Positions 40,330-59,436 of a DNA stretch of 64,000 nucleotides are shown here, piece after piece. This stretch comes from a virus, in IMG/VR virus record IMGVR_UViG_3300042905_004067; one strand, given 5' to 3'. The notes under the pieces are model-generated. The model did no database searches and was not told the origin of the DNA. It saw nothing but the letters and a program-made list of their open reading frames with translations. Position numbers and translations under genes: made by a program. Position 1 is the first letter of the stretch. The number at the start of each line of letters is the position of its first letter.

Positions 40330-41036
40330 TATAACACCTCATCCCAGACACCTCCAACTATTTTTGGAGAATTTAAATTACCAACAGATTGTTCTGATGC
40401 ATCTACTCCAAATATATTACCTAAAGCATTTGCATGATGAACTATTGTTCTTCTATGATGCTCTAGTTCTCTTATATTCTTTTCGTGTTCTGCCGCTAAT
40501 TCTTGGTGATGATGTGCTTGTAATTGATGTTCTTCTATGCTGTTTCCGAGAGGAACAGATCTACTCAAAGAACTTAGTGTGTTTTGTTTCATTGTTTTCA
40601 ATGAATCAACTGCCATTCTGTGAGATTGTCTCCATCTATCTCTGTGTTTTTCTATTGCTGAAGATAAACCATCGTGTAATGTTTTTAAATACAAAAGATA
40701 CTTAGATGGTTTTTTACTAAAAGCACGTTCAACTAAATGTTTTACAGAATGTTCTTGTTTAGGGTGATGTTGAGGAAGTGGAATTAATGACTTGCCAATT
40801 CCTAACTGGTGTGTTAGAACTTCGTTTCCTCTATACCCACCCTGAATAGAGTATTCTGCGATTCCATTTTTGTGTATTGGTTTATTAGTAAAGAAACCTA
40901 AAGAAGTTAAATGTTTAGAAATAGGAAGGTGAACGTCGCCATGAATTGTTTCATGGTGAAATCGATCAGCGATATACCGTGGTGAGGATTTGAAATCTCT
41001 CATTTCTTTTAATAACTTTTTTGTTTTTTCATTCAT
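40329..41036 (-). CDS. His-rich putative internal head protein
   Basis: Leader MNEKTKKLLKE; late operon. Confidence 0.45.
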   Translation of the reverse strand: MNEKTKKLLKEMRDFKSSPRYIADRFHHETIHGDVHLPISKHLTSLGFFTNKPIHKNGIAEYSIQGGYRGNEVLTHQLGIGKSLIPLPQHHPKQEHSVKHLVERAFSKKPSKYLLYLKTLHDGLSSAIEKHRDRWRQSHRMAVDSLKTMKQNTLSSLSRSVPLGNSIEEHQLQAHHHQELAAEHEKNIRELEHHRRTIVHHANALGNIFGVDASEQSVGNLNSPKIVGGVWDEVL

Positions 41037-41397
41037 AAAAATCTGGATTTTGTTTTCCGTACATTCTTACAATTCTACCAGCAATTGCATTTGCTTCGTC
41101 TTCATGTGGAGATCCAGTTGAACCATCCAAGTCATCTGTCTTTTTGTGTTGAGCGGCATGAACCATCTCATGTGCTATGCTTCTACAAATATCAAATGCT
41201 GCTCTTCCTTTGATATAGACTTTTATTTCACCATTTTTCATATTATAACTTGCTGTAGTCATATCCGGTTCTCTCTCTGGTAGAAGAATAACTTTTGGTA
41301 CTTCAAGGTTTAAAAACTCGGCAGCAAATTTAACAAAGTCATCTATTCGACCTTGTTTCTCGTATTGTTCGACTATAAATTTTACGAAATGTTTCAT
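41029..41397 (-). CDS. Capsid-targeting-leader protein with HExxH metallopeptidase motif
   Basis: MKHFVKFIVE leader; IAHEMVH..EDEANAIAG; GATAAATA upstream. Confidence 0.65.
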   Translation of the reverse strand: MKHFVKFIVEQYEKQGRIDDFVKFAAEFLNLEVPKVILLPEREPDMTTASYNMKNGEIKVYIKGRAAFDICRSIAHEMVHAAQHKKTDDLDGSTGSPHEDEANAIAGRIVRMYGKQNPDFYE

Positions 41398-41411
41398 AAA
41401 AGTATTTATCC

Positions 41412-41478
41412 AAAAAGAAACCTCCCGATGCGTAGAGCGGGAGGTCGGGCTTGAGATACGATCTCAAGCGGGGTTACT
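41412..41478 (-). ncRNA. Putative late small RNA or double-hairpin terminator
   Basis: CATAAATA, then GCTTGAGAT/ATCTCAAGC and ACCTCCCG/CGGGAGGT plus U-run. Confidence 0.4.
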
Positions 41479-41479
41479 A

Positions 41480-41593
41480 TTATTTATGTTTGTTTCTACC
41501 ACAATTACAAGATTTTTTTGTAAGTTTTGGGTCTGGCTTTGAAATAGGAACAGATCTAAAATTTAGTGGTTTGTTTGGTTTTTTTGGTGTCAT
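41480..41593 (-). CDS. 37-aa basic peptide (MTPKKPNKPL...SCNCGRNKHK)
   Basis: Hand-translated; ATGA overlap with upstream gene. Confidence 0.45.
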   Translation of the reverse strand: MTPKKPNKPLNFRSVPISKPDPKLTKKSCNCGRNKHK

Positions 41594-42081
41594 TCGCAGT
41601 TCCATTTTCGTAGAGACTTATTAATACGAGAATCTGGATCTCTTGCGGTCTTTGCGGAAGTTAGTTTAGCTTTCATGCCTTTCATTCGACGGCAAAAAGA
41701 CAAACGACGTTTTGCTTTCTTTGAACCTGGCTTTAGTTTGCTTGGTTCGGTTGTTACTGCTGTTTGTAACTTTGACCCAGGATTTGCTCTGCGATATGAA
41801 GCGACACCTTTTTTATTCAAACCACCTTCTGGATCTTTCCCCTCTTTGCGTTGCCATGCAGCAGACTTTGCTTCTTCTAATTGGGTTTGTTCTTCCATTG
41901 ACTTAGCCAACTTGACAATTTTTTCGGCTGCTTTTTCGTCGTGAGTAAAGTGTTTGTTTGCTTCATCAGCGGTTGGTTTCTTGCTCTTAATGTGTCTTCC
42001 AACCAACTTTGCAATTTTTTCTGACTCAGAAGCAGCGGCCTCTTTCATGATACCACGGATAATAGTCTCTGGGTTCTTCAT
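41590..42081 (-). CDS. DUF6321-like basic phage protein with internal LEE site
   Basis: GGLNKKGVASYRRANPGSKL..RRLSFCRRM..DPDSRINKSLRKWNC. Confidence 0.65.
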   Translation of the reverse strand: MKNPETIIRGIMKEAAASESEKIAKLVGRHIKSKKPTADEANKHFTHDEKAAEKIVKLAKSMEEQTQLEEAKSAAWQRKEGKDPEGGLNKKGVASYRRANPGSKLQTAVTTEPSKLKPGSKKAKRRLSFCRRMKGMKAKLTSAKTARDPDSRINKSLRKWNCE

Positions 42082-42121
42082 ATTATTCTCCTAGTATATG
42101 TAGTTTTTCATAAATACTGGG

Positions 42122-42838
42122 ATGAAGCATTTTAGCCTATATCTTCAAGAAGAGTCCTTATCATTAAAACAGCATGATACGCTCAATCCAAAGTTTTGGA
42201 CAAAGGATTCACTTAAACCAATAGTAAGAAAAAAACTATTAGAAATAGGCAAAACATGGGCAGAGTTTGCCAATATTCCAGACGAAGCAATCAAAGACAT
42301 AATATTCGTCGGTGGAAATGCAAATTACAATTATACAGAACATTCCGATGTTGATGTTCACGTTGTAATAGACAAAAACAAACTTCCAGATTGCCCTGAA
42401 GTACTAGAAGATTATTTTCAGGACAAAAAACAATTGTGGAGTCTTACACATAACATTCAAGTATATGCCCATGATGTTGAACTTTATGCACAAGACATGA
42501 CACTCAAGACTCCAAAGAATCAAGGTTCATTTAGTCTGTTAAAAAATAAATGGATAACAAAACCAAAGCAAGTTGAAGTCAAAATAGACGATGAACATAT
42601 TGGTAAAAAGGTACGAGAACTAACACACAGAATTCAAAACTTAATTTCATCGAATGCAAAAGACGAATCATTTAAGGCTCTCAAAACAAAAATAAAAAAC
42701 ATGAGAGCCGCTGGATTGAAACGATCAGGTGAATTTTCTTTTGAAAATCTAGTATTCAAAGAACTGAGAAACAGCGGCATACTAGACAAAATGAACAACT
42801 ACATTAAAACTAGAGAAGACAAAAAACTCAGTCTTTAA
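42122..42838 (+). CDS. Pol-beta superfamily nucleotidyltransferase with capsid-targeting leader
   Basis: MKHFSLYLQE leader; GGNANYNYTEHSDVDVHV..DVELY; CATAAATA upstream. Confidence 0.75.
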   Translation: MKHFSLYLQEESLSLKQHDTLNPKFWTKDSLKPIVRKKLLEIGKTWAEFANIPDEAIKDIIFVGGNANYNYTEHSDVDVHVVIDKNKLPDCPEVLEDYFQDKKQLWSLTHNIQVYAHDVELYAQDMTLKTPKNQGSFSLLKNKWITKPKQVEVKIDDEHIGKKVRELTHRIQNLISSNAKDESFKALKTKIKNMRAAGLKRSGEFSFENLVFKELRNSGILDKMNNYIKTREDKKLSL

Positions 42839-43214
42839 TGTGTTTGCTGATTAGTGTTGGTGCAACCAACTTGGTTTGTATGGTTCTTTGACCAGCAAAG
42901 TGCGCCTTAGCAAGGCGATGTGATCCATCCACTATATTACCAGAAGAATCCACATGAATGGGGTAACTCATGTCTGCTCTATCCACCCTAGCCATAAATG
43001 GTTCCGATGGTTTCTGTAATTGATCACCCAATCTACCCTCTTTTGTTCCAACATCTTGGTTGACACGAATCAAATCTTTGACTCGTCTTGTTTGATTTCT
43101 TGTTTGTGTTCCACGAATCAGAGTATCTACTGGTGCCACTCCTCTTTCGTCACCATAGAACTGACCTACAATTTTTCCCTTTGCTTCATTCAGATATTGA
43201 ATAAACGATTTCAT
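42828..43214 (-). CDS. ParB/Srx-like domain protein with capsid-targeting leader
   Basis: MKSFIQYLNE leader; ADMSYPIHV..IVDGSHRLAKA. Confidence 0.65.
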   Translation of the reverse strand: MKSFIQYLNEAKGKIVGQFYGDERGVAPVDTLIRGTQTRNQTRRVKDLIRVNQDVGTKEGRLGDQLQKPSEPFMARVDRADMSYPIHVDSSGNIVDGSHRLAKAHFAGQRTIQTKLVAPTLISKHIKD

Positions 43215-43537
43215 AAGTCGTAGTCTACTTTCTGAAACTTCGCGCCTTCCGGCAATTTTTTTACGAACTCATGAACTGCGTTACGAATATTTTCTTTGCT
43301 CGTCACACGCTCTGAAACCTCACCTTTTTCTGGGTGAGTATAAGTGACAGTTGCAGACCACTCTTGTTCTTCATTCAGAAACTGTTTGAAAGACATGATG
43401 TTTCTCTCTTCCTTCATATGTTTAAAGTATTCAACTTGACGAAGCCGTTTCACAGCACCAGCGCGAGTCGGAGAACAACCTAGGTTTCTACCCTTCTTAC
43501 TTGTAACGCAATACTGTGAGCCACGCTTTACGATCAT
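43211..43537 (-). CDS. Basic phage protein with internal capsid-targeting leader (possible second start at 43396)
   Basis: GRNLGCSPTRAGAVKRLRQVEYFKH then MSFKQFLNE. Confidence 0.55.
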   Translation of the reverse strand: MIVKRGSQYCVTSKKGRNLGCSPTRAGAVKRLRQVEYFKHMKEERNIMSFKQFLNEEQEWSATVTYTHPEKGEVSERVTSKENIRNAVHEFVKKLPEGAKFQKVDYDL

Positions 43538-44343
43538 TTTCTTTTCTTTTTTCCCTGTACTGTGAGAGTAATATCTCTAGCAGCCTCTTGATACGGTTCT
43601 CCATAAACAATATCATCATGCTTTCTTGGATTATAATTACCCATTTTACTTAGATTAATTGTCTTTCGTTTAAAATCTTTTGGATGTGGAAGATCTTTTG
43701 CAGTTTTCATTCTTGCCAAGACTTTTTTATTCATCCCAAGTTCTCTTAATCTTGTTTTTACATTTCTTACAGTTGACCATCCATCTTCTATGCCAGAATG
43801 TATGTCTTCATAATCAGCATGTTGATCCAAATTTAATCTCAGGTTTGGATGGTTCGGATGGGAAAAATACACAGCACTTGTTGAACGACTAGCCAACTCA
43901 CTTGATCTTCGGATTCTAACTGGTCGCATCTTGGCTAATCGCGCCCAGATAGATCTTCCGCCTTTTGTTTGTTGTTCTCCACTTTCTACTGTGCCAACTT
44001 TATCTGCGATCATAGCATAGACTTTAGGTACTAGATTTTTCACTAGTGCTTTTTTTCCACGATGGGCCGCAGTCATTGTAGGAAAGTCAATACGAATTGG
44101 TGAATTTCTTCCACTCCTTCTAATGTCAAACTGACCAACCTGTTTTCCACCATGTCGCACCGACACGATTTCGCCCGCGAGATCATCATCTTCGTGGTGA
44201 TGAACTTCATATGGTCCTATTCTCCCCAGTTTTGTGCTTTTTGATCTTGGTATTTTCGGAGAAACTGTATGCTCTCTTGCACCACCGCCATCTTGGTACT
44301 CTGGCATGTCCTCCGCAAGAAGATATTTTTTGAATCGTAGCAT
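43534..44343 (-). CDS. GNAT-like protein with capsid-targeting leader
   Basis: MLRFKKYLLAE; HRGKK..SGEQQTKGGRSIWARL; paralog of 58765-59436. Confidence 0.55.
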   Translation of the reverse strand: MLRFKKYLLAEDMPEYQDGGGAREHTVSPKIPRSKSTKLGRIGPYEVHHHEDDDLAGEIVSVRHGGKQVGQFDIRRSGRNSPIRIDFPTMTAAHRGKKALVKNLVPKVYAMIADKVGTVESGEQQTKGGRSIWARLAKMRPVRIRRSSELASRSTSAVYFSHPNHPNLRLNLDQHADYEDIHSGIEDGWSTVRNVKTRLRELGMNKKVLARMKTAKDLPHPKDFKRKTINLSKMGNYNPRKHDDIVYGEPYQEAARDITLTVQGKKKRK

Positions 44344-44951: not shown

Positions 44952-44959
44952 GGTAAATT

Positions 44960-44967
44960 TATTTATA
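44960..44967 (-). promoter_or_regulatory. T4-type late promoter TATAAATA
   Basis: Exact match 8 nt upstream of 44951. Confidence 0.75.
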
Positions 44968-45142
44968 GGGACTCCAATCTAGGGGTCCCCTACTGGGAGT
45001 CTCAGGGGTAGGGGAGGTAGGGGTAGGAGTCCCTTAAAGGATTTTTAGGGGGGAGTCTCATGGGTGGGAGTCCCATGTTCAGAAAGTCTTTAAGAATTCT
45101 TTGAGGGGGGCTTCGCTAGCGGGAGGCTCCAACGGGAGTCCC
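44968..45142 (+). repeat. G-rich array of GGGAGTCYC-like motifs
   Basis: Copies at 44968, 44982, 44995, 45026, 45051, 45066, 45121, 45134. Confidence 0.8.
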
Positions 45143-45278
45143 ATCGCTCCCTATACTGTTCGGACAGGAGCAAACTCACAGCAATGCATAACAATGCATA
45201 CGCTAAACACATGCTAGATTTGAGATGAAGTATGTGCTTCTCCCACGATTATCCCTAGTTTCCTAGATCGATATCCGC

Positions 45279-45307
45279 TTGCATTCAAGTGGCATTTCCA
45301 GTACAAT
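45279..45307 (+). promoter_or_regulatory. Early sigma70 promoter TTGCAT-N17-TACAAT
   Basis: Upstream of Gp88-like gene. Confidence 0.7.
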
Positions 45308-45335
45308 CTATGCACCAAACGAAAGGACTACTGCT

Positions 45336-46085
45336 ATGACTATCGCTCTCGCTCAACTTGCTCCCATTCACGCTCCCTGCGCTACCACCACGGACATCGA
45401 TCCGATTCATGACGGCTACGCACACAGTTACGCGGATCACCAACTCTGTGATGCATCGTGGGGTACGCTCGATGCTCTCACTGGCGGCTTGTCGTTGCCG
45501 TCGAAGATGCCGGGTCATTCGTTCTCGATCAGCGCGAAGCGTTGCAAGGTTGGCGCTGCGCTGCGCAAGGTCGCTGGCTCTACTTGCAGCAAGTGCTACG
45601 CTCTGAAGGGTCGGTATGTGTTTCCGAATGTGGCTGCTGCAATGGAGCGCCGGTATCAGAAGATGCGCTCTAACTCCACGGTGTGGGCTGCTGCAATGAT
45701 CGCCAGCATTCGTAAGACTGGCGATAAGCACTTTCGCTGGCACGACAGCGGAGACTTGCAGGGGATGAATCACCTCTTCGCCATCACCGTGATCGCGGAA
45801 GCCACTCCGTGGGTGCAGCACTGGCTGCCCACTCGGGAGTATGCGTTGGTGCGTGAGTATCTGCGCCAGTATCACCACTTCCCGGTGAATCTCACGGTGC
45901 GCGTGTCTGCGCCCATGATCGGGTCAGTCGCCAGTGAGTGGGAGAACAGCAGCAGCGTCGATGCTACTCGCACTCCCATGACTGCGTGGGTCGATTGCCC
46001 TGCGTCGAAGCAGGGAAACAAGTGCATGGACTGCCGCGCTTGTTGGGATAAGGATGTCGAAGTCGTCAACTACAAGAAGCACTAA
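45336..46085 (+). CDS. Gp88-like phage protein (Cys-cluster)
   Basis: SKMPG..C..CSKCYALKGRY..FRWHDSGDLQ..HWLPTRE..CPA..CMDCRACW; start MTIALA after GAAAGGA. Confidence 0.75.
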   Translation: MTIALAQLAPIHAPCATTTDIDPIHDGYAHSYADHQLCDASWGTLDALTGGLSLPSKMPGHSFSISAKRCKVGAALRKVAGSTCSKCYALKGRYVFPNVAAAMERRYQKMRSNSTVWAAAMIASIRKTGDKHFRWHDSGDLQGMNHLFAITVIAEATPWVQHWLPTREYALVREYLRQYHHFPVNLTVRVSAPMIGSVASEWENSSSVDATRTPMTAWVDCPASKQGNKCMDCRACWDKDVEVVNYKKH

Positions 46086-46107
46086 CTCTAACCAAAGGAC
46101 TCATACC

Positions 46108-46341
46108 ATGAGCAACAACACCAACAACGCTACTGCCAATCACGAACCCGGAGGCGATTATGTCTTCTACACTCCTCCCACCACTCCCGATGGTGATCGG
46201 GACTACCGTGCTGAGATCACTCGGTGGAAGGCGTACCGCGTGAAACTCGGTTCGATTGATCAATACCCCATCGATGCGCTGATCATCATCGACAACCTAC
46301 TCGATGCGCTCGATGCTGCGCGGAAGTCTCGGAATCAGTGA
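46108..46341 (+). CDS. Early hypothetical protein (paralog of 46691-46948)
   Basis: PP.TP.GDRD..IDNLLDALDAARK. Confidence 0.7.
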   Translation: MSNNTNNATANHEPGGDYVFYTPPTTPDGDRDYRAEITRWKAYRVKLGSIDQYPIDALIIIDNLLDALDAARKSRNQ

Positions 46342-46379
46342 TTCCGACAGTCTCAACCAAAACAGAAAGGACTCATACC

Positions 46380-46667
46380 ATGAGCAAGAAGAGCATTCTC
46401 AACAACTGGCGTCGTCGCTTCCGTTCGCTCTTGGATTCCACATTGTCCATCGAGTGTGTATTCTGCGGAAACAGTCTGATTGGCGACGGGCCCGCAACTC
46501 CCGTCATCTGCCTTGATTGTTTCTCGCATCCCGGTGTGATCTTGAATGATTGCACCATCTGCATGAACTGCGCCGCGGATGAGATGTCGTCCGGTACACT
46601 CGTCACCAAGACAACGCACCCCGATGGGTTCACTTGCGCGGAATGCTGCAAGGTTGTCACCGTCTAA
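46380..46667 (+). CDS. Early Cys-rich zinc-binding protein
   Basis: Four CxxC pairs; GAAAGGA SD. Confidence 0.65.
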   Translation: MSKKSILNNWRRRFRSLLDSTLSIECVFCGNSLIGDGPATPVICLDCFSHPGVILNDCTICMNCAADEMSSGTLVTKTTHPDGFTCAECCKVVTV

Positions 46668-46690
46668 CCCAAACGAAAGGACTCAATCAC

Positions 46691-46948
46691 ATGAGCAACA
46701 ACACCCAACCCCGTTATGAGTTCATCTACAATCCGCCTCTCACTCCTGCGGGCGACCGCGACTGGCGGAAGGAGCTTGATGTGTGGAAGCGCGGCCGCAA
46801 CAGCGGAAACGCACCGCTGGACATCACCACGATTGTCGTGATCGACAATCTGCTCGACGCGCTCGACGCAGCGCGAAAGGAGCGCGACGATGCGCGTTCG
46901 GCTGGAGCGTGGAAGTACATCGGAAACCCCAATGATCGCATCCCATGA
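46691..46948 (+). CDS. Early hypothetical protein (paralog of 46108-46341)
   Basis: IDNLLDALDAARK identical segment. Confidence 0.7.
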   Translation: MSNNTQPRYEFIYNPPLTPAGDRDWRKELDVWKRGRNSGNAPLDITTIVVIDNLLDALDAARKERDDARSAGAWKYIGNPNDRIP

Positions 46949-47014
46949 GGTGCGATTGTTGATAGTATTATTATCGGACTCAAAAACTTTTTGATTTTCC
47001 CCTGCTTTCCCCAC

Positions 47015-47043
47015 TTGCACCGATTCCCGTCTTCCGGTATAAT
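47015..47043 (+). promoter_or_regulatory. Early sigma70 promoter TTGCAC-N17-TATAAT
   Basis: ATG 9 nt after the -10 box. Confidence 0.75.
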
Positions 47044-47052
47044 GAAACGACT

Positions 47053-47697
47053 ATGGCTACCACCAAGTTCAACCCCACCTATCGTCCGTTCAAGACCTCG
47101 CACCACGCGATCATGGGCGCGGTCGATCACTACATGAGCGATGCGCCGCTGCGCTTCACCAGCGGAGGCGCGCAAGCGTCGTTCATTCGCAACAACGCCC
47201 GCGCGAATACGCCGCGTGAATACGGCATCAAGTTGTTTCCCAATGTTTCGCAGGCGTTCGCCGCGTACCAGCGTCAGAAGATTGCCGCCGACGCTGGCGC
47301 TGCTCCGCCGGTGCGCCGCATGGTGTGCTTCTCGCATCCCGGTATGGTGTACAATCGGGAGCAGGATCGGTATGTTCGCGCCACCGTCCTCAGTTGGGGG
47401 TATCAGACTTGCGTGGCGTACTCCATCGGTATCGAAGCGATGGAAGTGCCGTGGGACATGGAAGAGATGACGAATCCTCCCCTCAGCATGATCCCGGAGC
47501 GGCGTACTCGCGAGTTGTACAAGCTGATGCGTAGTCTCAGCACGGCTGGCACGCAGATCGACGGAAAGCCGCTCGGTACGATTCGCCGTCGTTCGCGGCG
47601 CATGGTTTACGATCTGCACCGTGACAACATCGGTTTCTGGCGCAAGCGCCCCGTTGTCATCGACTTCGGTTACCACATCGTTCAGGAGGCCTGCTAA
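47053..47697 (+). CDS. Protein kinase-like early protein
   Basis: YGIKLF (beta3 Lys), DLHRDNIG catalytic loop, VIDFG. Confidence 0.7.
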   Translation: MATTKFNPTYRPFKTSHHAIMGAVDHYMSDAPLRFTSGGAQASFIRNNARANTPREYGIKLFPNVSQAFAAYQRQKIAADAGAAPPVRRMVCFSHPGMVYNREQDRYVRATVLSWGYQTCVAYSIGIEAMEVPWDMEEMTNPPLSMIPERRTRELYKLMRSLSTAGTQIDGKPLGTIRRRSRRMVYDLHRDNIGFWRKRPVVIDFGYHIVQEAC

Positions 47698-47810
47698 TGA
47701 CAGAGACTCTGCTCTCTTTCGGCGTTTACTGCGTGATTGCGTTCTTCGTTCTCGCAATCTTCTTCGTCCTCTACATTCTCGCTCTCATTCTTTCGGAGGT
47801 AATCTCATGA
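47697..47810 (+). CDS. 37-aa single-pass membrane protein (MTETLLSFGVYCVIAFFVLAIFFVLYILALILSEVIS)
   Basis: Hand-translated; stop/start overlaps with both neighbours; AGGAGG upstream. Confidence 0.6.
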   Translation: MTETLLSFGVYCVIAFFVLAIFFVLYILALILSEVIS

Positions 47811-48184
47811 AGGTTTTCATCGTCAAGATCGACAACGGTAGTTCGACCGCTTGCCACGTTTTCAACAACGAAGCGGCCGCGAACGAGTTTCACGACAAGA
47901 TGAGCCGCCACTACGACGCGGTTGATCCCGAGACTTGGGTTCTCGCTCCGGAGGAGTGTGAAGTTCACGACGGAGTGGCAACCGCGCTCGTCAACGAGTT
48001 GGATGGCGAAGAGTTGCGGTACGAACCCGAATACTGCGACAACTGCGGTGTTCAGGTGTTTGCCACTTCACGCTACAGCGTTCCGATTCTCCCGGTGAAC
48101 ATCGCGTCTGCCAATGCGGGAGAGTCCGCGGTTCTTTGTCCTGAGTGCTGGCAGACGCACATCTGCAAGTGGAGGAAGAAGTAA
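47807..48184 (+). CDS. Early hypothetical protein with C-terminal zinc ribbon
   Basis: Start MKVFIV after GGAGGT; CDNC..CPEC. Confidence 0.6.
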   Translation: MKVFIVKIDNGSSTACHVFNNEAAANEFHDKMSRHYDAVDPETWVLAPEECEVHDGVATALVNELDGEELRYEPEYCDNCGVQVFATSRYSVPILPVNIASANAGESAVLCPECWQTHICKWRKK

Positions 48185-48327
48185 TGAAAATCCGAGTTCG
48201 TTTCGTGCATGATGCTCTTCGCGAAGGAGAGCGCCTGCGTCCCAAGACTTGGGGAAAGAAGGATCGCAATCCCCGCGCCGACCGTCGGCGTATCAAGCGA
48301 GCCATTCACAGAGGAGATTTCGAATGA
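48184..48327 (+). CDS. Small Arg-rich early protein
   Basis: MKIRVRFVHD..; GGAGG SD. Confidence 0.55.
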   Translation: MKIRVRFVHDALREGERLRPKTWGKKDRNPRADRRRIKRAIHRGDFE

Positions 48328-48617
48328 GCGCAATGAACCGCATGTCCCGTGTCATCACCTTCCGTATGCCGTCGGCGCCTGGATGGAAGGTGCAGTTCAA
48401 CATGAACGATCAGCACTTCACGATGATGCGTTTCGGTGAAGTGAAGGATCGTTGGCAGTTGGAACGCGAAGCCGATTGGCGTGGTCAGCGGCGCGATCTA
48501 GAACTGAACGAAATCGAGAACGAAGCGGAGCGCAAACTCCAGCTCGAGACACTTGCATGGGAACACGACCGGCATGCCGATGACGCCGATTTCACCGATC
48601 TCTACCCCAGCTACTGA
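48324..48617 (+). CDS. Early hypothetical protein
   Basis: MSAMNRMS; AGGAG SD. Confidence 0.55.
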   Translation: MSAMNRMSRVITFRMPSAPGWKVQFNMNDQHFTMMRFGEVKDRWQLEREADWRGQRRDLELNEIENEAERKLQLETLAWEHDRHADDADFTDLYPSY

Positions 48618-48728
48618 GGAGCCACAAAACCGATGAACATCATCTTGCGTCAACTGATGAAGGTTGCTACAATCATGGGGTACAAGTGGGAAACGTATCC
48701 CACCGACAACTCCAACAAAGGAAACCGA

Positions 48729-48971
48729 ATGACTGAGACTGACATGATTGTGAACACGTTCCGCGACTATCTGCGCCTCCTCTCTTCTAGCGTCCGAAAC
48801 GCTTCGGAGAGCAAGCAGCGCGACATTTTCGCCCGTGCTCGCACCGTCCGTCAGATCGCTCGTTCCGCCGGTATGCTCCCGCGTCTTGATCGCGCCATCG
48901 CGCACGACAAGACCACGAGCACCGTGTTCGTGAACAGCGACTTCAACTGGACGAAGTACGCGAACGCTTGA
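48729..48971 (+). CDS. Early hypothetical protein
   Basis: MTETDMIV after AAAGGA (alternative start 48633). Confidence 0.55.
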   Translation: MTETDMIVNTFRDYLRLLSSSVRNASESKQRDIFARARTVRQIARSAGMLPRLDRAIAHDKTTSTVFVNSDFNWTKYANA

Positions 48972-49063
48972 TCTCTCCCGTGTGTGTATGGGGAGGGAGT
49001 GCCGCTACTTCTCCCTCCCCGCACACGCCTCATCAAATGAGCCTTGATCAGAAAGACTTTGAT

Positions 49064-49279
49064 ATGGCAAACGGACGATACATCCTTGACTGGCGTAACG
49101 ACCCGCATTACTACTCGGCGGTGAATTTGGATCGGGATGTTCCCGATTACGATCCCGACGAGGATGAGGACGAAAACGAAGATTGGGAAGACCTGGAGGA
49201 CGACACACATGACGGTGGTAGCCATGATGAGTCCGAAGGCAACGATGATTGGTCTGGCCCTGACGAAGATCTAGACTGA
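49064..49279 (+). CDS. Highly acidic small early protein
   Basis: DYDPDEDEDENEDWEDLEDD... Confidence 0.55.
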   Translation: MANGRYILDWRNDPHYYSAVNLDRDVPDYDPDEDEDENEDWEDLEDDTHDGGSHDESEGNDDWSGPDEDLD

Positions 49280-49477: not shown

Positions 49478-49486
49478 GGGCGCACT

Positions 49487-50917: not shown

Positions 50918-50990
50918 TGGCAGCCATATCAGCAGAAATCCTTCGGGATTTTTGTTGATAGTACTCCCCCTCTCTGATACAATCGACCCC

Positions 50991-51230
50991 ATGAACAGCA
51001 GCACCACCATCTCTGATTCACTCTCTCAACTTCGGACTCTTTCGAATCAAGATCCGAACTTCCAGTCCTATGTGTCGGTCGTTATGGCCGGCAGGATCAT
51101 CATGAGCCTGTCTCGTCTTGATCGTCAACTGTTCAGCGACGAAGAGATCAAGGAGTTTAATCTGATCGCTGATCGCGCCAGCCTGTCGGCTCGCATGTTC
51201 GCCTCCAACATCAACAACGACACTTACTGA
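50991..51230 (+). CDS. Early hypothetical protein
   Basis: TTGATA-N17-TACAAT promoter 7 nt upstream of ATG. Confidence 0.55.
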   Translation: MNSSTTISDSLSQLRTLSNQDPNFQSYVSVVMAGRIIMSLSRLDRQLFSDEEIKEFNLIADRASLSARMFASNINNDTY

Positions 51231-51233
51231 ACC

Positions 51234-51578
51234 ATGAATACCAACAACAACAATTCGTACCGTGGCAATGATTACAATCTCCTGAAGCCTTACCAGCAGG
51301 AGTTCATCCGAATGATCGCAAACTGGGCTTCAGTCAGCATGAAGACCACGATCACCGCAGACTTCGGATGGGATCGCTCTCTTCTTCGCGACATCGCGAT
51401 TTCGAACGGGATGAAGTGGGCGCCAGCCTGGATCGTGAAGGACAAGAATCGAAAGAAGGGACGAGGCTATTATATGGTTCCCGAGGTGTGTGATTACATT
51501 CTCTCCGTGATGCCTAACGAGAGCACCGAGCGGGATGCGGCTGTGGAATCCGCAGAGACTGAGCCAGTCGCCGTCTAA
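51234..51578 (+). CDS. Stand-alone homolog of the ATPase N-terminal domain
   Basis: APAWIVKDKNRKKGRGYYMVPE versus PPAWIVKDTARSAGRGLFHVPE. Confidence 0.65.
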   Translation: MNTNNNNSYRGNDYNLLKPYQQEFIRMIANWASVSMKTTITADFGWDRSLLRDIAISNGMKWAPAWIVKDKNRKKGRGYYMVPEVCDYILSVMPNESTERDAAVESAETEPVAV

Positions 51579-51702
51579 GGCACAAGCCAGTTTCCCATCT
51601 TTCAGGGGCAGGTCTTCACAGAGACCTGCCCCTTATCATTTGACGATTGTTGATAGTACAGTTATCGGACGTACCCCCGTTTTCTAGGTAGGTTTTAGGG
51701 GG

Positions 51703-51731
51703 TTGACACGACCCCCCAGGTCCTGTATAAT
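51703..51731 (+). promoter_or_regulatory. Early sigma70 promoter TTGACA-N17-TATAAT (perfect consensus)
   Basis: Exact consensus; ATG 7 nt after the -10 box. Confidence 0.85.
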
Positions 51732-51738
51732 GAACACT

Positions 51739-54195
51739 ATGGCTAAGCTTCCCACCGTCACTACCTCCACGCACAATCACGCGGCCGCGTCCGTCATGGC
51801 GCGCATTCTGTCGACCGAGAACATCTCGGTCGTCGTGAATCCGGCTGCGAGCACCGCATCGTTCGATCTCGCGAATCGCGTTCTGTATCTTCCCGAGTGG
51901 AAGGACATGAGCCGCAACGTGTACGACATGCTCATCGGGCATGAGATCTCCCACGCGCTGCACACTCCCGCTGACGGCTGGCGTTCGACTTGCGATTCGA
52001 TCAGCGGTACGACCGACACTTCCTCGCCTGAGTGGCGCACTGCGTCGCTCTACCTCAACGTGGTTGAGGATGCGCGTATCGAACGGCTGGTCAAGGACAA
52101 GTTCCCCGGCTTCAAGCGCGACTTCGTGACTGCGTACAACGAACTCGCCGCCAAGGACTTCTTCGGCGTGAAGAAGATCGACCTCAACACGCTCACGCTC
52201 CCGGATCGCCTGAACCTGTACTACAAGCTCGGCACCATCGGTTCGGTCGGTATTCGTTTCACCGCTGACGAGCAGCAGTTCATCTCTCGTATCGACGCTG
52301 CAAAGTCGTTCGATGAGATCTCGTCCATCGCTGCGGATCTCTACACCTTCTGCAAGGAGCAGCAGGCGAAGAAGCAGAAGCAGCAGCAGACGCCTACCGT
52401 TCCGAACGACGGCGACTCGTCGGACAACGGGAAGAACGACACGAAGGCGCCCGAGAGCAAGAAGGGCGAGAAGGCGCAGGACAAGGGTCCGGCGCAGAAC
52501 ATGAAGGGTAGCGGCGACAAGTCGGATTCGTCGGATCAGAAGGATCAGACTTCTGCTGCTGAGAGTTCGTCCGATGGTGACGAGCAGCAGGAACGCCCCC
52601 AGTCGCAGTCTCCGTCTGCCCCTGCGGCTGGAACTGGCGCTGCTCCGACGCCCATCACTCAGCAGGCGTTCAACGACGCGCTTCAGCAGAGCGTGAAGAA
52701 GCCCAATGCTTACGAAACCTCGGATCTCATCGCGCAGACCGAACTGGTTTTCCCCGATCTCTCCAAGGTCGTGATCGACTACAAGACGCTCGTGGCTGAC
52801 TCCAAGACCGATGCGCCTGGTTTCTTCAACCCGGTGAAGGCGTATGATCAGGAGTACCGCAAGAACATTCTCGCGGCCGACGAGAAGTTTGTTCGCGAGA
52901 GCAAGCGTAGCGTCGACCTGCTGATCAAGCAGTTTGAACTGCGAAAGGCTGCTCAGGTGTCGAAGCGCGCCGCGATTCGCAACACCGGCGTCCTTGACAC
53001 GGTTCGCATGACGAGCTACAAGTGGTCGGATGACATCTTCCGCCGCAACACGATTCTGCCGGAGGGAAAGAATCACGGCCTCGTCATGTACGTTGACTGG
53101 TCGGGTTCCATGTCCTGCAATCTGCTGTCCGTGCTTGAGCAGACGTATGTGCTCTGCGACTTCTGCCGTCGCGCAGGGATTCCGTTCGAAGTCTATGCGT
53201 TCACGACTCGTTCGTGGAGCACTGGAACCGAATACACTGCTGATCCTAGCACCGATCAGAACAATATGCTCGGCGTGTGGGGTAAGGATCGTGTCAGTTT
53301 TGATCGGTATCAGAACCCCTCCCCGAAGAACGGTAGCGGCGCGCGAACTCAGCCGGCGGCGCACTATGTGTTCTCGCTGCTGAACCTGTTCTCCTCGCGC
53401 ATGAACAAGCAGGAGTACATTCAGATGCGCCAGTTCACTCGCGCCCTGGCCAGTGTTTCGCACACGACCGGGTACATGGATCGCCCGACGCGGTGGGATC
53501 TCAGCGGCACTGCCCTTGACGAAGCAATCGTCAGCGCCATGCTGATGGTTCCCAAGTTCAAGGCGGACAACCGGCTCGACATCGTGAACACGGTGTTCCT
53601 CACCGATGGCGAAACGAGCATTCCGTACTGCGGAAAGCAGCTGATCGACCCCAAGACTCGCGCAGTCTATTCGACCGCCGAACTTGACCGCAACAACGCG
53701 GAACTGGAGCAGGGACGCAGCAGCCACGGTTCCTCCACCAACGTCCTGCTCCTCGCGTTCCGCGAGATCACCGGCAGCCGTGCGGTTGGTATGTACCTCA
53801 CCTCGCACCCCTCCATGCAGCCCTGCACCATGTTCCCGAAGCGTGTTGCGAAGCAACTTCCCATCTCTGAGCAGATTCTGATCGCGCGCGGACACAACAA
53901 GACCAGTACTTACTTCCGCACCGAAGTCATTCGTCACTCTGCCGCTGCGGTGCAGGACGATCTGATCAAGGAGTTCAAGGCGAACAACATGATCGTCACC
54001 GAACCGAACACGACAGGGTACGACGAGTTCTTCATCATCAAGTCCAACGTCAAGGTCGTTGGCGAGGACGAGTTCAAGAACGTCGAAGTCGGTGCGTCGC
54101 AGTTGAAGCTCAAGCGCGCTTTCGCCAAGTCGTTTGGTGATCGCAACAAGAACCGCACCCTCGTCAACCGTTTCATCGAACTGATCGCCCGCTAA
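51739..54195 (+). CDS. HExxH metallopeptidase-like plus VWA (CobT-like) partner of the MoxR ATPase
   Basis: GHEISH, NVVEDARIE, low-complexity linker, MIDAS DWSGSM..GTAL..FLTDGE. Confidence 0.88.
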   Translation: MAKLPTVTTSTHNHAAASVMARILSTENISVVVNPAASTASFDLANRVLYLPEWKDMSRNVYDMLIGHEISHALHTPADGWRSTCDSISGTTDTSSPEWRTASLYLNVVEDARIERLVKDKFPGFKRDFVTAYNELAAKDFFGVKKIDLNTLTLPDRLNLYYKLGTIGSVGIRFTADEQQFISRIDAAKSFDEISSIAADLYTFCKEQQAKKQKQQQTPTVPNDGDSSDNGKNDTKAPESKKGEKAQDKGPAQNMKGSGDKSDSSDQKDQTSAAESSSDGDEQQERPQSQSPSAPAAGTGAAPTPITQQAFNDALQQSVKKPNAYETSDLIAQTELVFPDLSKVVIDYKTLVADSKTDAPGFFNPVKAYDQEYRKNILAADEKFVRESKRSVDLLIKQFELRKAAQVSKRAAIRNTGVLDTVRMTSYKWSDDIFRRNTILPEGKNHGLVMYVDWSGSMSCNLLSVLEQTYVLCDFCRRAGIPFEVYAFTTRSWSTGTEYTADPSTDQNNMLGVWGKDRVSFDRYQNPSPKNGSGARTQPAAHYVFSLLNLFSSRMNKQEYIQMRQFTRALASVSHTTGYMDRPTRWDLSGTALDEAIVSAMLMVPKFKADNRLDIVNTVFLTDGETSIPYCGKQLIDPKTRAVYSTAELDRNNAELEQGRSSHGSSTNVLLLAFREITGSRAVGMYLTSHPSMQPCTMFPKRVAKQLPISEQILIARGHNKTSTYFRTEVIRHSAAAVQDDLIKEFKANNMIVTEPNTTGYDEFFIIKSNVKVVGEDEFKNVEVGASQLKLKRAFAKSFGDRNKNRTLVNRFIELIAR

Positions 54196-54206
54196 TAGGA
54201 GCAACT

Positions 54207-54401
54207 ATGACACTTCCCTACGAAGAGTATAACGCGATTCTTTCCTGCACCCGGTTCATGTATGATCTCATGGACCCGAAGCGCACTCCCGGAGTTCCCA
54301 AGTGGGTGCGCGTGGAGGCACGGCGCCGTGTGAAGCACATGCCGCTTGAACCGGTTCTGCTAGAGCGGTACAAGGACTTGCTTCCGAAACAGCCTCAATA
54401 A
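54207..54401 (+). CDS. Conserved small phage protein
   Basis: MTLPYE..TPGVPKWVR..KHMP; AGGAG SD. Confidence 0.6.
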   Translation: MTLPYEEYNAILSCTRFMYDLMDPKRTPGVPKWVRVEARRRVKHMPLEPVLLERYKDLLPKQPQ

Positions 54402-54498
54402 TCGGTACAAACAGTCTTAGCCCAAACGGGCCAGTCGGGATACATATCTTGACTGGCTCGTTTTTGTTTGGTACGATTGTTGATAGTAGGAGCACTCT

Positions 54499-55089
54499 AT
54501 GAAGGAATCCGAATTCATCCGCCTAGTCCGCGACGATCTCGCAAGCGAGAATGTAAATTTGATCATTGGTAGAGGAAAGCAAATCAACTGCGATGGTATT
54601 CGCGTCGATGGATACTTTAGCGATTACGCACGAGAACTTCGAGTAGCACGAGGATGTAAGCAATGGCTTGGCACTCTATGCCACGAATACGCCCACTTTC
54701 GTCAGTGGATAGAGGGATGCAAACACTATCAACAATCCACCAAAGCCATACAGATTATCGACACATGGTTCTCTGGAAAGGAATACTCCGAACGGGAACT
54801 GTCGAGAGCATTTCGACTCGTTCGCACGATGGAACGTGATGCCGAACGGAGAACTGCCGAAATGATCGAACGGTATTCTCTTCCCGTAGATCTGAATCTT
54901 TATATCAAAAGAGCAAACTGCTACATCTATGCTCACTTCATCATGGAGCGACATCGTAAGTTCTGGGCGTTCTCTCGCGACCCATTTCGTAGCAGAGTTG
55001 TTCTGAACCTCATGCCAAACGATTTTCGTTGTCAGTCCCATCACAAACTCCCACCTGACATCGACACAGCACTTGAATCCCTCGTCTGA
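54499..55089 (+). CDS. HExxH zinc metallopeptidase-like protein
   Basis: DGYF..LCHEYAHFRQW..MERDAE. Confidence 0.6.
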   Translation: MKESEFIRLVRDDLASENVNLIIGRGKQINCDGIRVDGYFSDYARELRVARGCKQWLGTLCHEYAHFRQWIEGCKHYQQSTKAIQIIDTWFSGKEYSERELSRAFRLVRTMERDAERRTAEMIERYSLPVDLNLYIKRANCYIYAHFIMERHRKFWAFSRDPFRSRVVLNLMPNDFRCQSHHKLPPDIDTALESLV

Positions 55090-55778: not shown

Positions 55779-56222
55779 CTACCGAAATGGATGCTTCTCT
55801 ACCCGTACCAATGGTGTTTCTATCCCCTGTTGCTTCTGTATCTCTCCCCACTTTGCTTGAAAGATAGCATGATTCTTCTCTCCTCTTTCACCAGCATTGG
55901 TCTGATACTGAACCTGTGCGATCTTTGGGTTTGAACGAGCAAAATCAGCCACATGATCCATTGCTGTTCTCAATCTGGCAGATCTGACTTCCTTTGGTAC
56001 ATCAGGTGGTGCAACATCAGTCAACTCCCCTTTGGCATTTGGTACTTGAAAGCCCCAATAGGCTATTCCTTTTTTGGCATCTGTGTGTATTCTTGTATGA
56101 ACACCAGTATCCGAATCCCTATAGAAATGAGTAGAGATATGTGGTGTCTCTTTGTCTGAAGTGACAGAGACTAGATGCGGATGAGTTTCACTCTCTGAGA
56201 GGTATTGCCGAAAAGTGAGCAT
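55779..56222 (-). CDS. Capsid-targeting-leader protein
   Basis: MLTFRQYLSE leader identical to 57710-58228. Confidence 0.65.
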   Translation of the reverse strand: MLTFRQYLSESETHPHLVSVTSDKETPHISTHFYRDSDTGVHTRIHTDAKKGIAYWGFQVPNAKGELTDVAPPDVPKEVRSARLRTAMDHVADFARSNPKIAQVQYQTNAGERGEKNHAIFQAKWGEIQKQQGIETPLVRVEKHPFR

Positions 56223-56273
56223 GAAAATATGTAGTGTGAAGCCGAACGGGTGTCTCTACTCTGTAACCACCAA

Positions 56274-56330: not shown

Positions 56331-57305
56331 TTATTTCTTACGGGGGGTTCTCATTACCTTACCACCCTTGCCGTATAATGTTTTGGATCTTTTTTCACGT
56401 TGGTTTTGTTTTATCGCGTCGTTTAATGCTGTTCTCGCATCAATAAGATCATCAACGGAATCCGCGAATTCCATTGGCTCGGTGGCTGGTGATACTGTTG
56501 CTTTTTTACCATACATCGCGTTCCAAAGTGCGTTTGAACGTCTACCCAATCGGTTAACGTATTTGGTCCAATCTTTTATTTCAGTTTCCATCTCTGCTGC
56601 ACGTTCAGGAGTCTGTAAGTCTTCTTTCAGTCTTTTCTTCTTTGCTTTTGTTCCCACAATCTTTCCGCCGAGGCCATAAATCTTCGTGGGGTGTTTTCTT
56701 TCGCGTTCGGCTCTCGCTTCTGCCTGATCTTTTGCGGCTACCGCATCAACATAAGCATCAACGGAATCGGGGTAACTAGTATCATATGGATCTACACCGC
56801 CAAACCCTATTCTACCAAGATCACCAACGGTATTGACTTTGTCAACATCAACTCCATATATTTTTTTGTAGATAGCATCCGATCTCTTGCCTAATCTGGT
56901 CGCTTCTCGTCCAAGTCTTCTTACCACGCTGGCGGTCTCTGCTGCACGTTCAGGAGTCTGTATATCCTCTGTCACCGGACGAGTTCCGAGTGGTCTTTTA
57001 GTTGCTGCTTTGGGAAGTTGTCCTCTTTGAGCCATATCGACGGCTCCCGCCGGATCATCAAGATCAAGATCAAGATTTTTTTGGGAACGAGATAGTGGTT
57101 TTTCTGGTTTCACAACTGGATCATCAAGATCAAGCCGTAATTTTCCCACCCTGCGTTTACCTTCTTTAAGAGGTTCAGCACCTAAAATTTCTGTCATTTC
57201 TTGAACAATTGCTTTGAGTTGATTTAACTCATGATTGGCTTCCATGAGTTGTCGTTGAAGTTGATTCTTTTCGTTGATGAGTTTTTGTTGGTAAAAGTAG
57301 TCCAT
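56331..57305 (-). CDS. Putative internal head polyprotein with repeated modules
   Basis: MDYFYQQKLINE leader; EDIQTPERAAET / EDLQTPERAAEM duplicated modules. Confidence 0.6.
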   Translation of the reverse strand: MDYFYQQKLINEKNQLQRQLMEANHELNQLKAIVQEMTEILGAEPLKEGKRRVGKLRLDLDDPVVKPEKPLSRSQKNLDLDLDDPAGAVDMAQRGQLPKAATKRPLGTRPVTEDIQTPERAAETASVVRRLGREATRLGKRSDAIYKKIYGVDVDKVNTVGDLGRIGFGGVDPYDTSYPDSVDAYVDAVAAKDQAEARAERERKHPTKIYGLGGKIVGTKAKKKRLKEDLQTPERAAEMETEIKDWTKYVNRLGRRSNALWNAMYGKKATVSPATEPMEFADSVDDLIDARTALNDAIKQNQREKRSKTLYGKGGKVMRTPRKK

Positions 57306-57683
57306 TTATTTTCCTTTGTTTTTGCGAAGTCGATTGTTTCTTCTCAATAATCCCTCTATGTTCTTTTGTGTGCCTCTTGCACCAATCATTGCGCTCTTCA
57401 GTTCTTCGTCTGATGCTCCTGCCCACGCACCACCTCTTTTGTCTTGAGGTAGTGCCATTTGCCGCATCAATTCGGTTCTTGTCATGTGTGCGCCGCCGAG
57501 CATTGATTTGTTGTATGCTTCGTGACCACCTGGCGCGTCAAGATGAATGTCCATTTGATCCATTGCGGCCGAATCTATGCGATCTAATACCGCGCGTCTT
57601 TTTGGTGTGAGCCTATAGACTTCATCCAATTTCATTTGACGATATGCGTCAGCAACGGCTTTGATTTGTTTATTTGCATCCAT
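57306..57683 (-). CDS. Putative internal head protein
   Basis: MDANKQIKAVADAYRQMKLDE leader. Confidence 0.5.
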   Translation of the reverse strand: MDANKQIKAVADAYRQMKLDEVYRLTPKRRAVLDRIDSAAMDQMDIHLDAPGGHEAYNKSMLGGAHMTRTELMRQMALPQDKRGGAWAGASDEELKSAMIGARGTQKNIEGLLRRNNRLRKNKGK

Positions 57684-57709
57684 GAGTAGATTCCTTGATA
57701 TTTTATTTA

Positions 57710-58228
57710 TCATCCTGCAACCGGCAACCACGGTTCATTCTCTCGTCGTGAACTTCTTGAACCACCGCGATCCAATTCTTTGTCCAATGGAGCCAGGTTC
57801 TTTGCTTCGATGCCTAATCGTCGCGCACCGGCTTGGTAGATGCGGTGTTTTTTTGGATGTGTTGTATCGTAAACTAAAACAGGGGGTTTGCCGTTTTTAT
57901 GAATCTGACTGCTCACAAAATGTGAAAAGTGATCAAATACTCGTTTGGTGACATCTGATGGAAAATCATGAGTTGGATTCTTGCTGTGAGTGCCACCCAC
58001 TGAAAACAAAACTTCCCAATGATGATCCCAGTAGGGCTTTTTTACGAATGATGTGTGTATAGTCTTGTCAGATATGACAAAACCATTTTCTCCTCTTGGT
58101 TTGTGGTGATACACGACATAATCTTCTTTGTCAATAGTTCTATCTGGATGATCCGGGTGTGGTTCCCCTCTATTCGCTGTCTGATTACCACGAAAGATCT
58201 CTGAGAGGTATTGCCGAAAGGTGAGCAT
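57710..58228 (-). CDS. Capsid-targeting-leader protein
   Basis: MLTFRQYLSE; CATAAATA upstream. Confidence 0.65.
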   Translation of the reverse strand: MLTFRQYLSEIFRGNQTANRGEPHPDHPDRTIDKEDYVVYHHKPRGENGFVISDKTIHTSFVKKPYWDHHWEVLFSVGGTHSKNPTHDFPSDVTKRVFDHFSHFVSSQIHKNGKPPVLVYDTTHPKKHRIYQAGARRLGIEAKNLAPLDKELDRGGSRSSRRENEPWLPVAG

Positions 58229-58249
58229 GAAATTATTTATGGTAGGTGT

Positions 58250-58768
58250 TTAGGGATTGCCGAAAGCTTTTCTTCTTCGTTTATCCGCCTCCAGTTTTTT
58301 AGCAATTTCGCCCGCGGCAGATCCTAGAGTGTGTAGTCCGTGTGGTGTTTGTTTTAGGGTGGGCATTTGTTTTTCTTCTCGTCGCCCTTGAGCAATTTCA
58401 GAACCGGCATTTAGTAGTCCACCAAGCAATGCTTTATTACTTGGCAAGTTTTCGATGCCTTTCACTATCCTTTTTCCTACTTGTGTTGCTGCACCAACTA
58501 CTGCGGTTCCTGCTTTAGTGGCGAGATTACTCAGCACACCTTCGTTCACAGGTTCTCCCATTCTCTTTTTTATCATGTTTATGATTCTTTGTTTGTCTTC
58601 ATATTCTTTGGCATATTCACCTGCTTTTTCTGGTGTTCCAAATTTTTTCTCTATTGCTTCGCCAGTTTTAGCCGATTCTGCTTCGTGTGTTCTGAATATA
58701 CGAAGCCGCTTTAGTGCTCTTTGTCCTGCTGGAGTGTCGCCTATTTCGTTTAGTAGTTTTTTGTTCAT
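58250..58768 (-). CDS. Putative internal head protein
   Basis: MNKKLLNE leader, internal PVNE site. Confidence 0.5.
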   Translation of the reverse strand: MNKKLLNEIGDTPAGQRALKRLRIFRTHEAESAKTGEAIEKKFGTPEKAGEYAKEYEDKQRIINMIKKRMGEPVNEGVLSNLATKAGTAVVGAATQVGKRIVKGIENLPSNKALLGGLLNAGSEIAQGRREEKQMPTLKQTPHGLHTLGSAAGEIAKKLEADKRRRKAFGNP

Positions 58769-59436
58769 GGGTTTTCCTTTTTTGGTTGTTCTGGGTGATG
58801 TATTAAAAGCCAATAGTACCCAGATTGATGACCACCGCCCGAAGTCGATGAATATACTGTGTTATGGTGTTCTGGCTTATCTGGATCGTAATCATGTATG
58901 CGTTCTCCTGTTCGTGTATTCAAGGCACTTACTTTTCCCATTTTTGCCAAATTTTTCCAAACATTTTGCCCGCCTCTGGATTGTCGGGCGCCACTAACGA
59001 CAGGCATATTCAAATGCTGTGATATCATTTTATAAACATGAGATGGCAATCCAGACACCCTGGCTTTCTTTCCACTATGACTTAATTGAAACAATGGATG
59101 TTGAGACACCAAATGTTTTGGGAGGTTCATAAAACCTGGTTTTTCTTCCGAAAAAGTAACTACTCCAACTCGGTTGCCTTTATGAGTAACAACAGCATGA
59201 TGTTGCCTGTATATGTGGCCGCCAATTGATCCAACCATTTCAGTGGGGACATGATGGACTTCATATGGTCCAATTTCTCCTATTTTCTTTAAAGGAGTAT
59301 CACCTTTGGCTGCATCCAAAGATTTTAATCTTTGGCGAAGGTCTGCCGCTCTAAATGCCTTATCCTCTTTGCTTTGCTCGTACTCATCATCAAGATAAGG
59401 CATATCTTCTGAAATAAATTGCTTGAATCTCAACAT
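58765..59436 (-). CDS. GNAT-like protein with capsid-targeting leader
   Basis: MLRFKQFISE-DMPY; IGPYEVHH; QSRGGQNVWKNL. Confidence 0.55.
   Translation of the reverse strand: MLRFKQFISEDMPYLDDEYEQSKEDKAFRAADLRQRLKSLDAAKGDTPLKKIGEIGPYEVHHVPTEMVGSIGGHIYRQHHAVVTHKGNRVGVVTFSEEKPGFMNLPKHLVSQHPLFQLSHSGKKARVSGLPSHVYKMISQHLNMPVVSGARQSRGGQNVWKNLAKMGKVSALNTRTGERIHDYDPDKPEHHNTVYSSTSGGGHQSGYYWLLIHHPEQPKKENP

Follow-up and report, generated by a model that had tools for sequence, protein, structure and literature searches.

Unrelated, partly enzyme-like proteins of a divergent T4-like phage probably share a T4-type capsid-targeting leader

The internal proteins of T-even phages form a very varied group whose members share only a capsid-targeting sequence (CTS; PMC3012670), which has been suggested to serve evolution as a means of loading different proteins (PMC3012670, PMC9026906). 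The first 10 residues of the T4 internal protein IPIII suffice for packaging, and suppressor mutagenesis showed that residues 4 and 7 govern targeting and residues 8 and 10 processing (PMC9026906). The internal proteins of T4 are ejected together with its DNA, their lysines contact DNA phosphates, and IPI* is an anti-restriction protein (PMC3012670). Here we describe similar leaders in a 64,000-nt stretch of viral DNA, IMG/VR record IMGVR_UViG_3300042905_004067 (the window), which is known from sequence alone. A previous sequence-only reading had listed nine leaders of about ten residues on open reading frames (ORFs) of the window and taken them for capsid-targeting tags on injected proteins. 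All nine N-termini were confirmed (Table 1; genes are named by the position of their start), and eight of them start at the ORF's first plausible ATG, 43396 being the exception.

The leaders follow a strict form, M-x(1-2)-F-xx-[FY]-[LI]-x(1-2)-E, which was run on the six-frame translation of the 64 kb. This gave 8 matches, each at a reported start and all within 41-44.4 kb and 56-59.5 kb; locally shuffled DNA gave a mean of 0.17 matches and a maximum of 3. The extra window matches of a looser pattern were short or internal chance ORFs only, and no leader was found at real ORF starts in the remaining window or in 60 kb of a partially similar contig, G001. In the eight strict leaders, F is followed three residues later by Y or F, at positions 4 and 7 (in the 43396 leader, which is shorter, 3 and 6), and [LI]-x-E is present in 9/9 leaders, offset by one residue in the 11-residue 44343 and the 9-residue 43396 leaders. 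The invariant positions F4, Y/F7, L/I8 and E10 thus coincide with the functional positions of IPIII. Synonymous codons vary among the leaders (AAA/AAG, TTC/TTT, TAT/TAC, CTT/CTG/CTC, GAA/GAG) and the residues are kept, which argues that selection acts on the peptide. A signal peptide was ruled out, as the leader is short, amphipathic, Glu-ending and without a hydrophobic core.

The ORFs behind the leaders had been called otherwise unrelated. All-against-all BLASTP bore this out for most of them, but 44343/59436 (E 8e-19) and 56222/58228 (E 1e-5) are paralogous pairs. Since these were the only two pairs, the leader is common to at least seven unrelated bodies; descent of all cargo genes as paralogues was ruled out by the same comparison. 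From residue 13 onward, eight cargo bodies hold 7 [LIVM]xE sites, whereas residue shuffles predict 15.1 (P ~0.008), and four of the eight are free of such sites. The observed/expected ratio for 25 non-cargo proteins of the window is 1.12. This roughly two-fold depletion fits proteins that would need to survive a protease cutting such sites.

A degenerate DNA pattern, ATG-N6-TWY-N6-TWY-NTN-N3-GAR, was run on whole phage records. In T4 (NC_000866.4), it finds three sites, ipII and ipIII (both MKTYQEFIAE) and gp61.1, with 0 control matches. The last of these (18966-19130), a 54-aa hypothetical protein encoded beside the primase gene, starts MKTFKEFIKE and matches the full pattern. In the T4-like cyanophage S-CREM2 (OR473000.1), three matches are annotated starts, those of ORF6 (S-adenosylmethionine (SAM) hydrolase), ORF136 and ORF154 (cytidylyltransferase), and a fourth lies inside nrdA. 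All three ORFs are in the proteome of caesium chloride (CsCl)-purified S-CREM2 virions (PMC10665884, Table 3), and two more virion proteins, gp13 and the gp14 kinase (PMC10665884), carry the leader too. S-CREM2 ORF156, a homologue of the window nucleotidyltransferase (51% identity) that starts MKKLISE, is likewise in the virion proteome (PMC10665884). In S-CRM01 (HQ615693.1), 4/4 pattern matches are annotated starts, namely g33, g127, the Ser/Thr kinase g130 and the acetyltransferase g185; the kinase is cited as virion-associated (PMC10665884). The cyanophage starts MKDFDSFLEE, VKRFDAFLTE, MKNFSSFLTE and MISFDQFLSE match the window type, the first three being virion-detected; their owners are the SAM hydrolase, an APH/ChoK-like kinase and the cytidylyltransferase of S-CREM2 and the Ser/Thr kinase of S-CRM01. 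The payload families differ from those of the window, the nucleotidyltransferase excepted. The proteome paper draws no link between these virion enzymes and a targeting leader (PMC10665884), and in the literature searched we did not find the leader described in connection with virion-detected cyanophage enzymes. Such leaders would explain why cyanophage virions contain non-structural enzymes.

The leader is also conserved among relatives of the window. In homologues of the 223-, 172- and 128-aa proteins, its x positions drift and the leader is kept down to 32% identity. For the 172-aa protein, 20/20 homologues of full length have it (32-93% identity; the N-terminus is cut short in two more entries); it is also present in homologues of the 223-aa protein at 50-96% identity, and in 11 full-length homologues of the 128-aa protein, in which a DGSHRL motif is invariant. 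Among relatives from metagenomes, L010 has leaders on 68-, 136- and 546-aa proteins and L020 on 136- and 180-aa proteins. A third relative, L022, shares synteny with the 40-45 kb cluster and has seven tandem leaders, one of them on a NUDIX protein, but is without the 108-, 202- and 269-aa genes. As relatives carry the leader on different bodies, the cargo set turns over while the tag stays. A subtilisin-like (Peptidase_S8) gene, absent from the window, lies in or beside the cargo cluster of L004 (11246-12757) and L010 (6532-7941); the L004 gene is an insertion between cargo genes and begins with a signal-peptide-like sequence.

Taken together, the match to the functional positions of T4, the recovery of T4 and S-CREM2 proteins by one pattern, the conservation of the leader and the site depletion support the earlier proposal, and the leaders are probably T4-type capsid-targeting sequences on unrelated payloads. 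Like IPI, IPII and IPIII of T4, the window proteins have an N-terminal 10-residue leader with aromatic residues at 4 and 7, Leu or Ile at 8 and Glu at 10, the tag sits on unrelated, mostly basic small proteins of putative late genes, and the locus is near denV, a gene that in T4 directly adjoins ipII and ipIII. The resemblance extends to the hypervariable internal-protein loci of T2 and T6, with one tag, changing payloads and a repertoire that varies among relatives. Unlike in T4, however, no window body is homologous to IPI, IPII or IPIII, and several contain enzyme-like domains. T4 has 3 tagged genes, whereas the window has 9 to ~14 in 20 kb, and its phage is very distant in host and lineage. 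The T-even loci belong to close T4 relatives that infect enterobacteria; the payloads here, in an uncultured low-GC lineage, include nucleotidyltransferase, GNAT-like and HExxH domains, with NUDIX in a relative. A precedent for an enzyme payload is the T4 ADP-ribosyltransferase Alt, which is packaged in the head, processed by gp21 and injected, and has gp21-cleaved propeptides at both termini (PMC9026906). No ADP-ribosyltransferase was found in the window. The Alt propeptide is not known to be of the MKTYQEFIAE type.

If the leader works as in T4, the cargo genes would be expressed late, from TATAAATA-type promoters or through translational coupling, and each protein would be docked by its leader on the scaffolding core while the prohead assembles. 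A gp21-type prohead protease would then cut after the Glu of [LI]-x-E, freeing a mostly basic mature protein in the head that would leave with the DNA at the next infection. For the window phage, we infer packaging, cleavage, injection and any effector activity, such as anti-defence, by analogy with T4; the payload might then act before any phage transcription.

Table 1. Cargo genes, candidate members, promoter-like motifs and synteny marker (positions in the window)
Feature	Position	Strand	Remark
HExxH cargo, 122 aa, leader MKHFVKFIVE	41029..41397	-	then zincin-like domain (HEMVH ... EDEANA)
Nucleotidyltransferase cargo, 238 aa, leader MKHFSLYLQE	42122..42838	+	pol-beta-type (GG...SDVDV)
Basic cargo, 128 aa, leader MKSFIQYLNE	42828..43214	-	possible ParB_N/Srx-like by DGSHRL
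108-aa ORF (61 aa from internal start)	43211..43537	-	internal leader-like MSFKQFLNE at 43396
Very basic cargo, 269 aa, leader MLRFKKYLLAE	43534..44343	-	GNAT-like family, paralogue of 59436
Very basic (pI 11) cargo candidate, 202 aa	44343..44951	-	looser leader MRLSKDFLLE
Cargo, 147 aa, leader MLTFRQYLSE	55779..56222	-	paralogue of 58228
Cargo, 172 aa, leader MLTFRQYLSE	57710..58228	-	family of unknown function
Cargo, 223 aa, leader MLRFKQFISE	58765..59436	-	then GNAT-like fold
Probable member, ~172 aa, basic, MNKKLLNE	58250..58768	-	ATG overlaps upstream stop (ATGA); predicted membership
Possible member, 235 aa, MNEKTKKLLKE-M	40329..41036	-	L-L-x-E-M site kept in L022 homologue
Possible member, 163 aa, basic, DUF6321 family, MKNPETIIRGIMKE	41590..42081	-	I-[MI]-K-E kept in L022
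Polyprotein-like cargo candidate, 324 aa	56331..57305	-	12-residue MDYFYQQKLINE start, 7 [LIVM]xE sites
ATAAATA late-promoter-like motif	41403..41409	-	5 nt before ATG at 41397
ATAAATA late-promoter-like motif	42110..42116	+	5 nt before ATG at 42122
ATAAATA late-promoter-like motif	58234..58240	-	5 nt before ATG at 58228
TATAAATA late-promoter consensus	44960..44967	-	8 nt before ATG at 44951
CTACATA motif, possible variant late promoter	56228..56234	-	5 nt before ATG at 56222
CTACATA motif, possible variant late promoter	59442..59448	-	5 nt before ATG at 59436
denV (Pyr_excise) homologue	37738..38313	-	synteny marker; ~2 kb from leader cluster

The cargo appears to fall into seven or more unrelated families: a nucleotidyltransferase, an HExxH zincin-like protein, the two GNAT-like paralogues, a possible ParB_N-like protein and several families of unknown function. 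Of the enzymes that had been proposed, the nucleotidyltransferase and the HExxH protein hold up best. The 42122 protein matches phrog_36119 (E 8e-79) and falls just under the Pfam cut-off for NTP_transf_2 (E 0.002; 18.8 bits, cut-off 21); its active-site motif (of the type hG[GS]-x(9-13)-D-h-[DE]) is kept in a homologue, and homologues were found in 45 phage records. PADLOC returned only a weak PDC-S09 match, for this protein. The 41397 protein has matches under the cut-off to Pfam Peptidase_M78 (E 0.002) and to SprT-like proteins. Its HExxH domain has 1677 homologues, in which the matched region begins at about residue 13-18, past the leader, and both HE[ML]VH and E[DN]EANA are kept across the 17 homologues read out of these 1677. 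Stand-alone HExxH homologues mostly open with similar leaders, such as MKKYTEFLTE; other copies lie within long proteins.

The proposal of two GNAT-like payloads stood in part. In an AlphaFold model of the 223-aa protein (predicted local distance difference test score, pLDDT, 79), the fold does not include residues 1-18, which are disordered, and the top Foldseek matches are nearly all GNAT acetyltransferases, but with E values of only 2e-3 to 2e-2 (template-modelling score, TM, 0.3-0.47). Neither member of the pair has a Pfam match, and a tblastn search of catalogued phages with the 223-aa protein gave no match. The alignment of 59436 with 44343 contains an invariant Q-S-R-G-G-Q, an inexact fit to the canonical acetyl-CoA loop Q/R-x-x-G-x-G/A. 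A GNAT-like fold of this pair is moderately supported. The ParB/Srx-like assignment of the 128-aa protein is only a lead: it draws on the DGSHRL motif and on an Atlas cluster with ParB_N in 44% of its members (score 0.91), but Pfam gave no match even at E 10. The AlphaFold model of this protein (pLDDT 39) was too poor to use, and sequence searches of the PDB with the 128- and 238-aa proteins returned nothing meaningful. Residues 2-45 of the 108-aa ORF weakly match phrog_3684. A purine-rich GAAGGAAGAGAG stretch precedes the internal leader at 43396, which may serve as an alternative start or else mark a site of internal cleavage. The 202-aa protein has no Pfam or PHROG family match and no relatives in IMG/VR.

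Late promoters or late operons had also been claimed for all the leader genes, and a motif or operon coupling was indeed found for 9/9; the CTACATA motif, however, is only a putative late-promoter variant. A promoter-like motif lies just upstream of six genes, as ATAAATA or TATAAATA at four and as CTACATA at two. In the relative L010, TATACATA-N5-ATG stands upstream of the 59436 orthologue. The genes at 44343, 43537 and 43214 follow 44951, the first gene of an operon running to 42828, through overlapping stop and start codons (TAATG, ATGA), the TAATG being at the 44343 start. The motif stands exactly 5 nt from the ATG, without a Shine-Dalgarno sequence, at five cargo genes and also at 28768 and 31792, and this spacing recurs in L010. 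In T4-type late promoters, TATAAATA occupies positions -13 to -6. With this geometry, the first transcribed nucleotide would be the A of the ATG, and the late mRNAs would be leaderless.

Further likely members, with variant propeptides ending in [LI]-x-E, are 58768, 41036, 42081, 57305 and 61152. The ORF at 61152 opens with MDLFLQKKIINE, similar to the start of 57305. In G001/L004, ORFs 241-1314 (357 aa, MLNE) and 1919-5242 (1107 aa, MNILTE) have many x-[LI]-N-E sites and resemble head cargo of the polyprotein kind, which the prohead protease would cut into pieces.

Several explanations other than tagged, injected effectors were weighed. The leader could direct proteins to the prohead in which most of them then act, as core or scaffold accessories or as neutralisers of DNA charge. 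Consistent with this, most cargo is strongly basic (isoelectric point, pI, 9-11 in 12/14 cargo candidates analysed; net charge up to +22), five families are without a recognisable catalytic domain, and the lysines of T4 internal proteins touch the DNA backbone, as noted above. The nucleotidyltransferase, HExxH, GNAT-like and L022 NUDIX signatures, however, have no obvious use in a capsid; the T4 proteins are ejected, with IPI* acting against restriction; and the rapid turnover of the repertoire among relatives is typical of host-interaction genes. We therefore consider a role confined to the capsid unlikely for most of these proteins.

That the shared 5' coding sequence instead serves the RNA, by aiding translation initiation or the stability of late mRNAs whose 5' leaders are very short or missing, appears highly improbable. 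In its favour, a promoter-like motif stands exactly 5 nt from the ATG at five of the nine genes, which with T4-type late-promoter geometry would put the transcription start at or beside the ATG, but the synonymous variation leaves residues and not codons constant, the leader is equally present on coupled genes without a promoter of their own (43214, 44343), its conservation tracks amino-acid positions important in T4, and leader-bearing proteins are found in S-CREM2 virions. We give marginally less credence still to common descent or chance, with diverged paralogues keeping an N-terminal helix that has no targeting role. Chance is opposed by the expectation of 0.17 matches. For descent, two true paralogous pairs exist, and the 56222 and 58228 leaders are one nucleotide apart; yet the other families have no detectable similarity past the leader, and the HExxH and nucleotidyltransferase domains belong to large independent families with the leader outside the domain boundary.

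A number of observations weigh against capsid targeting of injected effectors, the interpretation that we prefer. Two of the nine leaders are atypical: that of 44951 is the loosest, with S4 and F7, and that of 43396 is internal to its ORF. The motif is imperfectly specific, since T4 gp61.1 carries it in an early-gene region and NrdA of S-CREM2 contains an internal chance match; S-CREM2 gp175 begins in a similar way and was not detected in virions. Co-purification of abundant proteins with virions is a possibility against which the S-CREM2 authors themselves warn (PMC10665884). The enzyme activities of the payloads are deduced from weak profile or fold matches. Moreover, no prohead protease gene lies within the 64-kb window, although conservation of the T4-like core genes would predict one in the genome; a search for PF03420 (gp21) in the 75-kb partial relative G001 gave no match, but the control failed too, so this result is uninformative.

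The window has a GC content of ~35%, T4-type baseplate genes (matches to phrog_219, phrog_438, phrog_232 and PF12322), a gene for a gp32-type single-stranded DNA-binding protein (SSB) and nine tRNA genes. Its gp6-like baseplate protein is only ~29% identical to the best catalogued-phage matches, which are from cyanophages and the Methylophilales phage Melnitz. No DNA near-identical to either leader cluster was found in the phage collection searched, and an exact 45-mer was absent from IMG/VR. Because of the low gp6-like identity, the absence of near-identical cluster DNA and the T4-type genes, the source is taken to be a deeply divergent uncultured T4-like myophage of a low-GC environmental lineage. 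From 56514 to 59568, the DNA is 91-93% identical to L004 (IMGVR_UViG_3300034092_003233), and in the flanking 59.6-64 kb identity does not exceed 67% or the DNA cannot be aligned; this contrast may reflect either recent cassette exchange or a hypervariable flank.

Between the two leader clusters lies a block of ~9.5 kb (45100-54500, + strand) with 50-63% GC, compared with ~35% in the genome. It encodes a GP88-family protein, a CobS-like AAA_5/DUF5710 ATPase and a CobT-like 830-aa protein. The CobS/CobT-like equivalents in L020, L021 and L022 are GC-rich too, and since three relatives have such a block, an assembly chimera was ruled out as its origin. Elsewhere in the window, the ORF at 34688-35689 matches phrog_1211 (E 1e-67), an adenylosuccinate-synthetase-like family (PurZ-type naming), and this hints that the DNA of the phage contains a modified purine. 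A gene with a TnsA-like endonuclease N-terminal domain (19841-20383; PF08722, E 3e-19), which borders the baseplate cluster, may encode a mobile endonuclease.

The concept of a CTS on varied proteins is already established for T4; what is described here is its probable use in a lineage far from T4, where the set is larger and the payloads are enzyme-like, and the finding that one pattern also marks virion-detected enzymes in cyanophages. More tentatively, and with the odds rather against it, the leader, often together with the promoter-N5-ATG unit, could be a portable cassette for fast swapping of enzymes in a large injected 'first-strike' proteome, made up of the 9-14 tagged proteins of the window and polyprotein-like cargo elsewhere. 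The pattern would then predict injected effectors across the T4-like superfamily and explain the kinases, SAM hydrolase and nucleotidyltransferases of cyanophage virions. As it marks T4 internal proteins as well as cyanophage virion enzymes, the rule seems valid over a very wide T4-like span. For specialists, this would be a useful extension and no surprise. Should the tag act as it does in T4, the set of proteins delivered with the DNA could be read directly from sequence by means of a ten-residue pattern. The tagged set is a likely place for anti-defence and host-takeover enzymes, and since it is unusually large and fast-changing, it may be a good source of candidate effectors.

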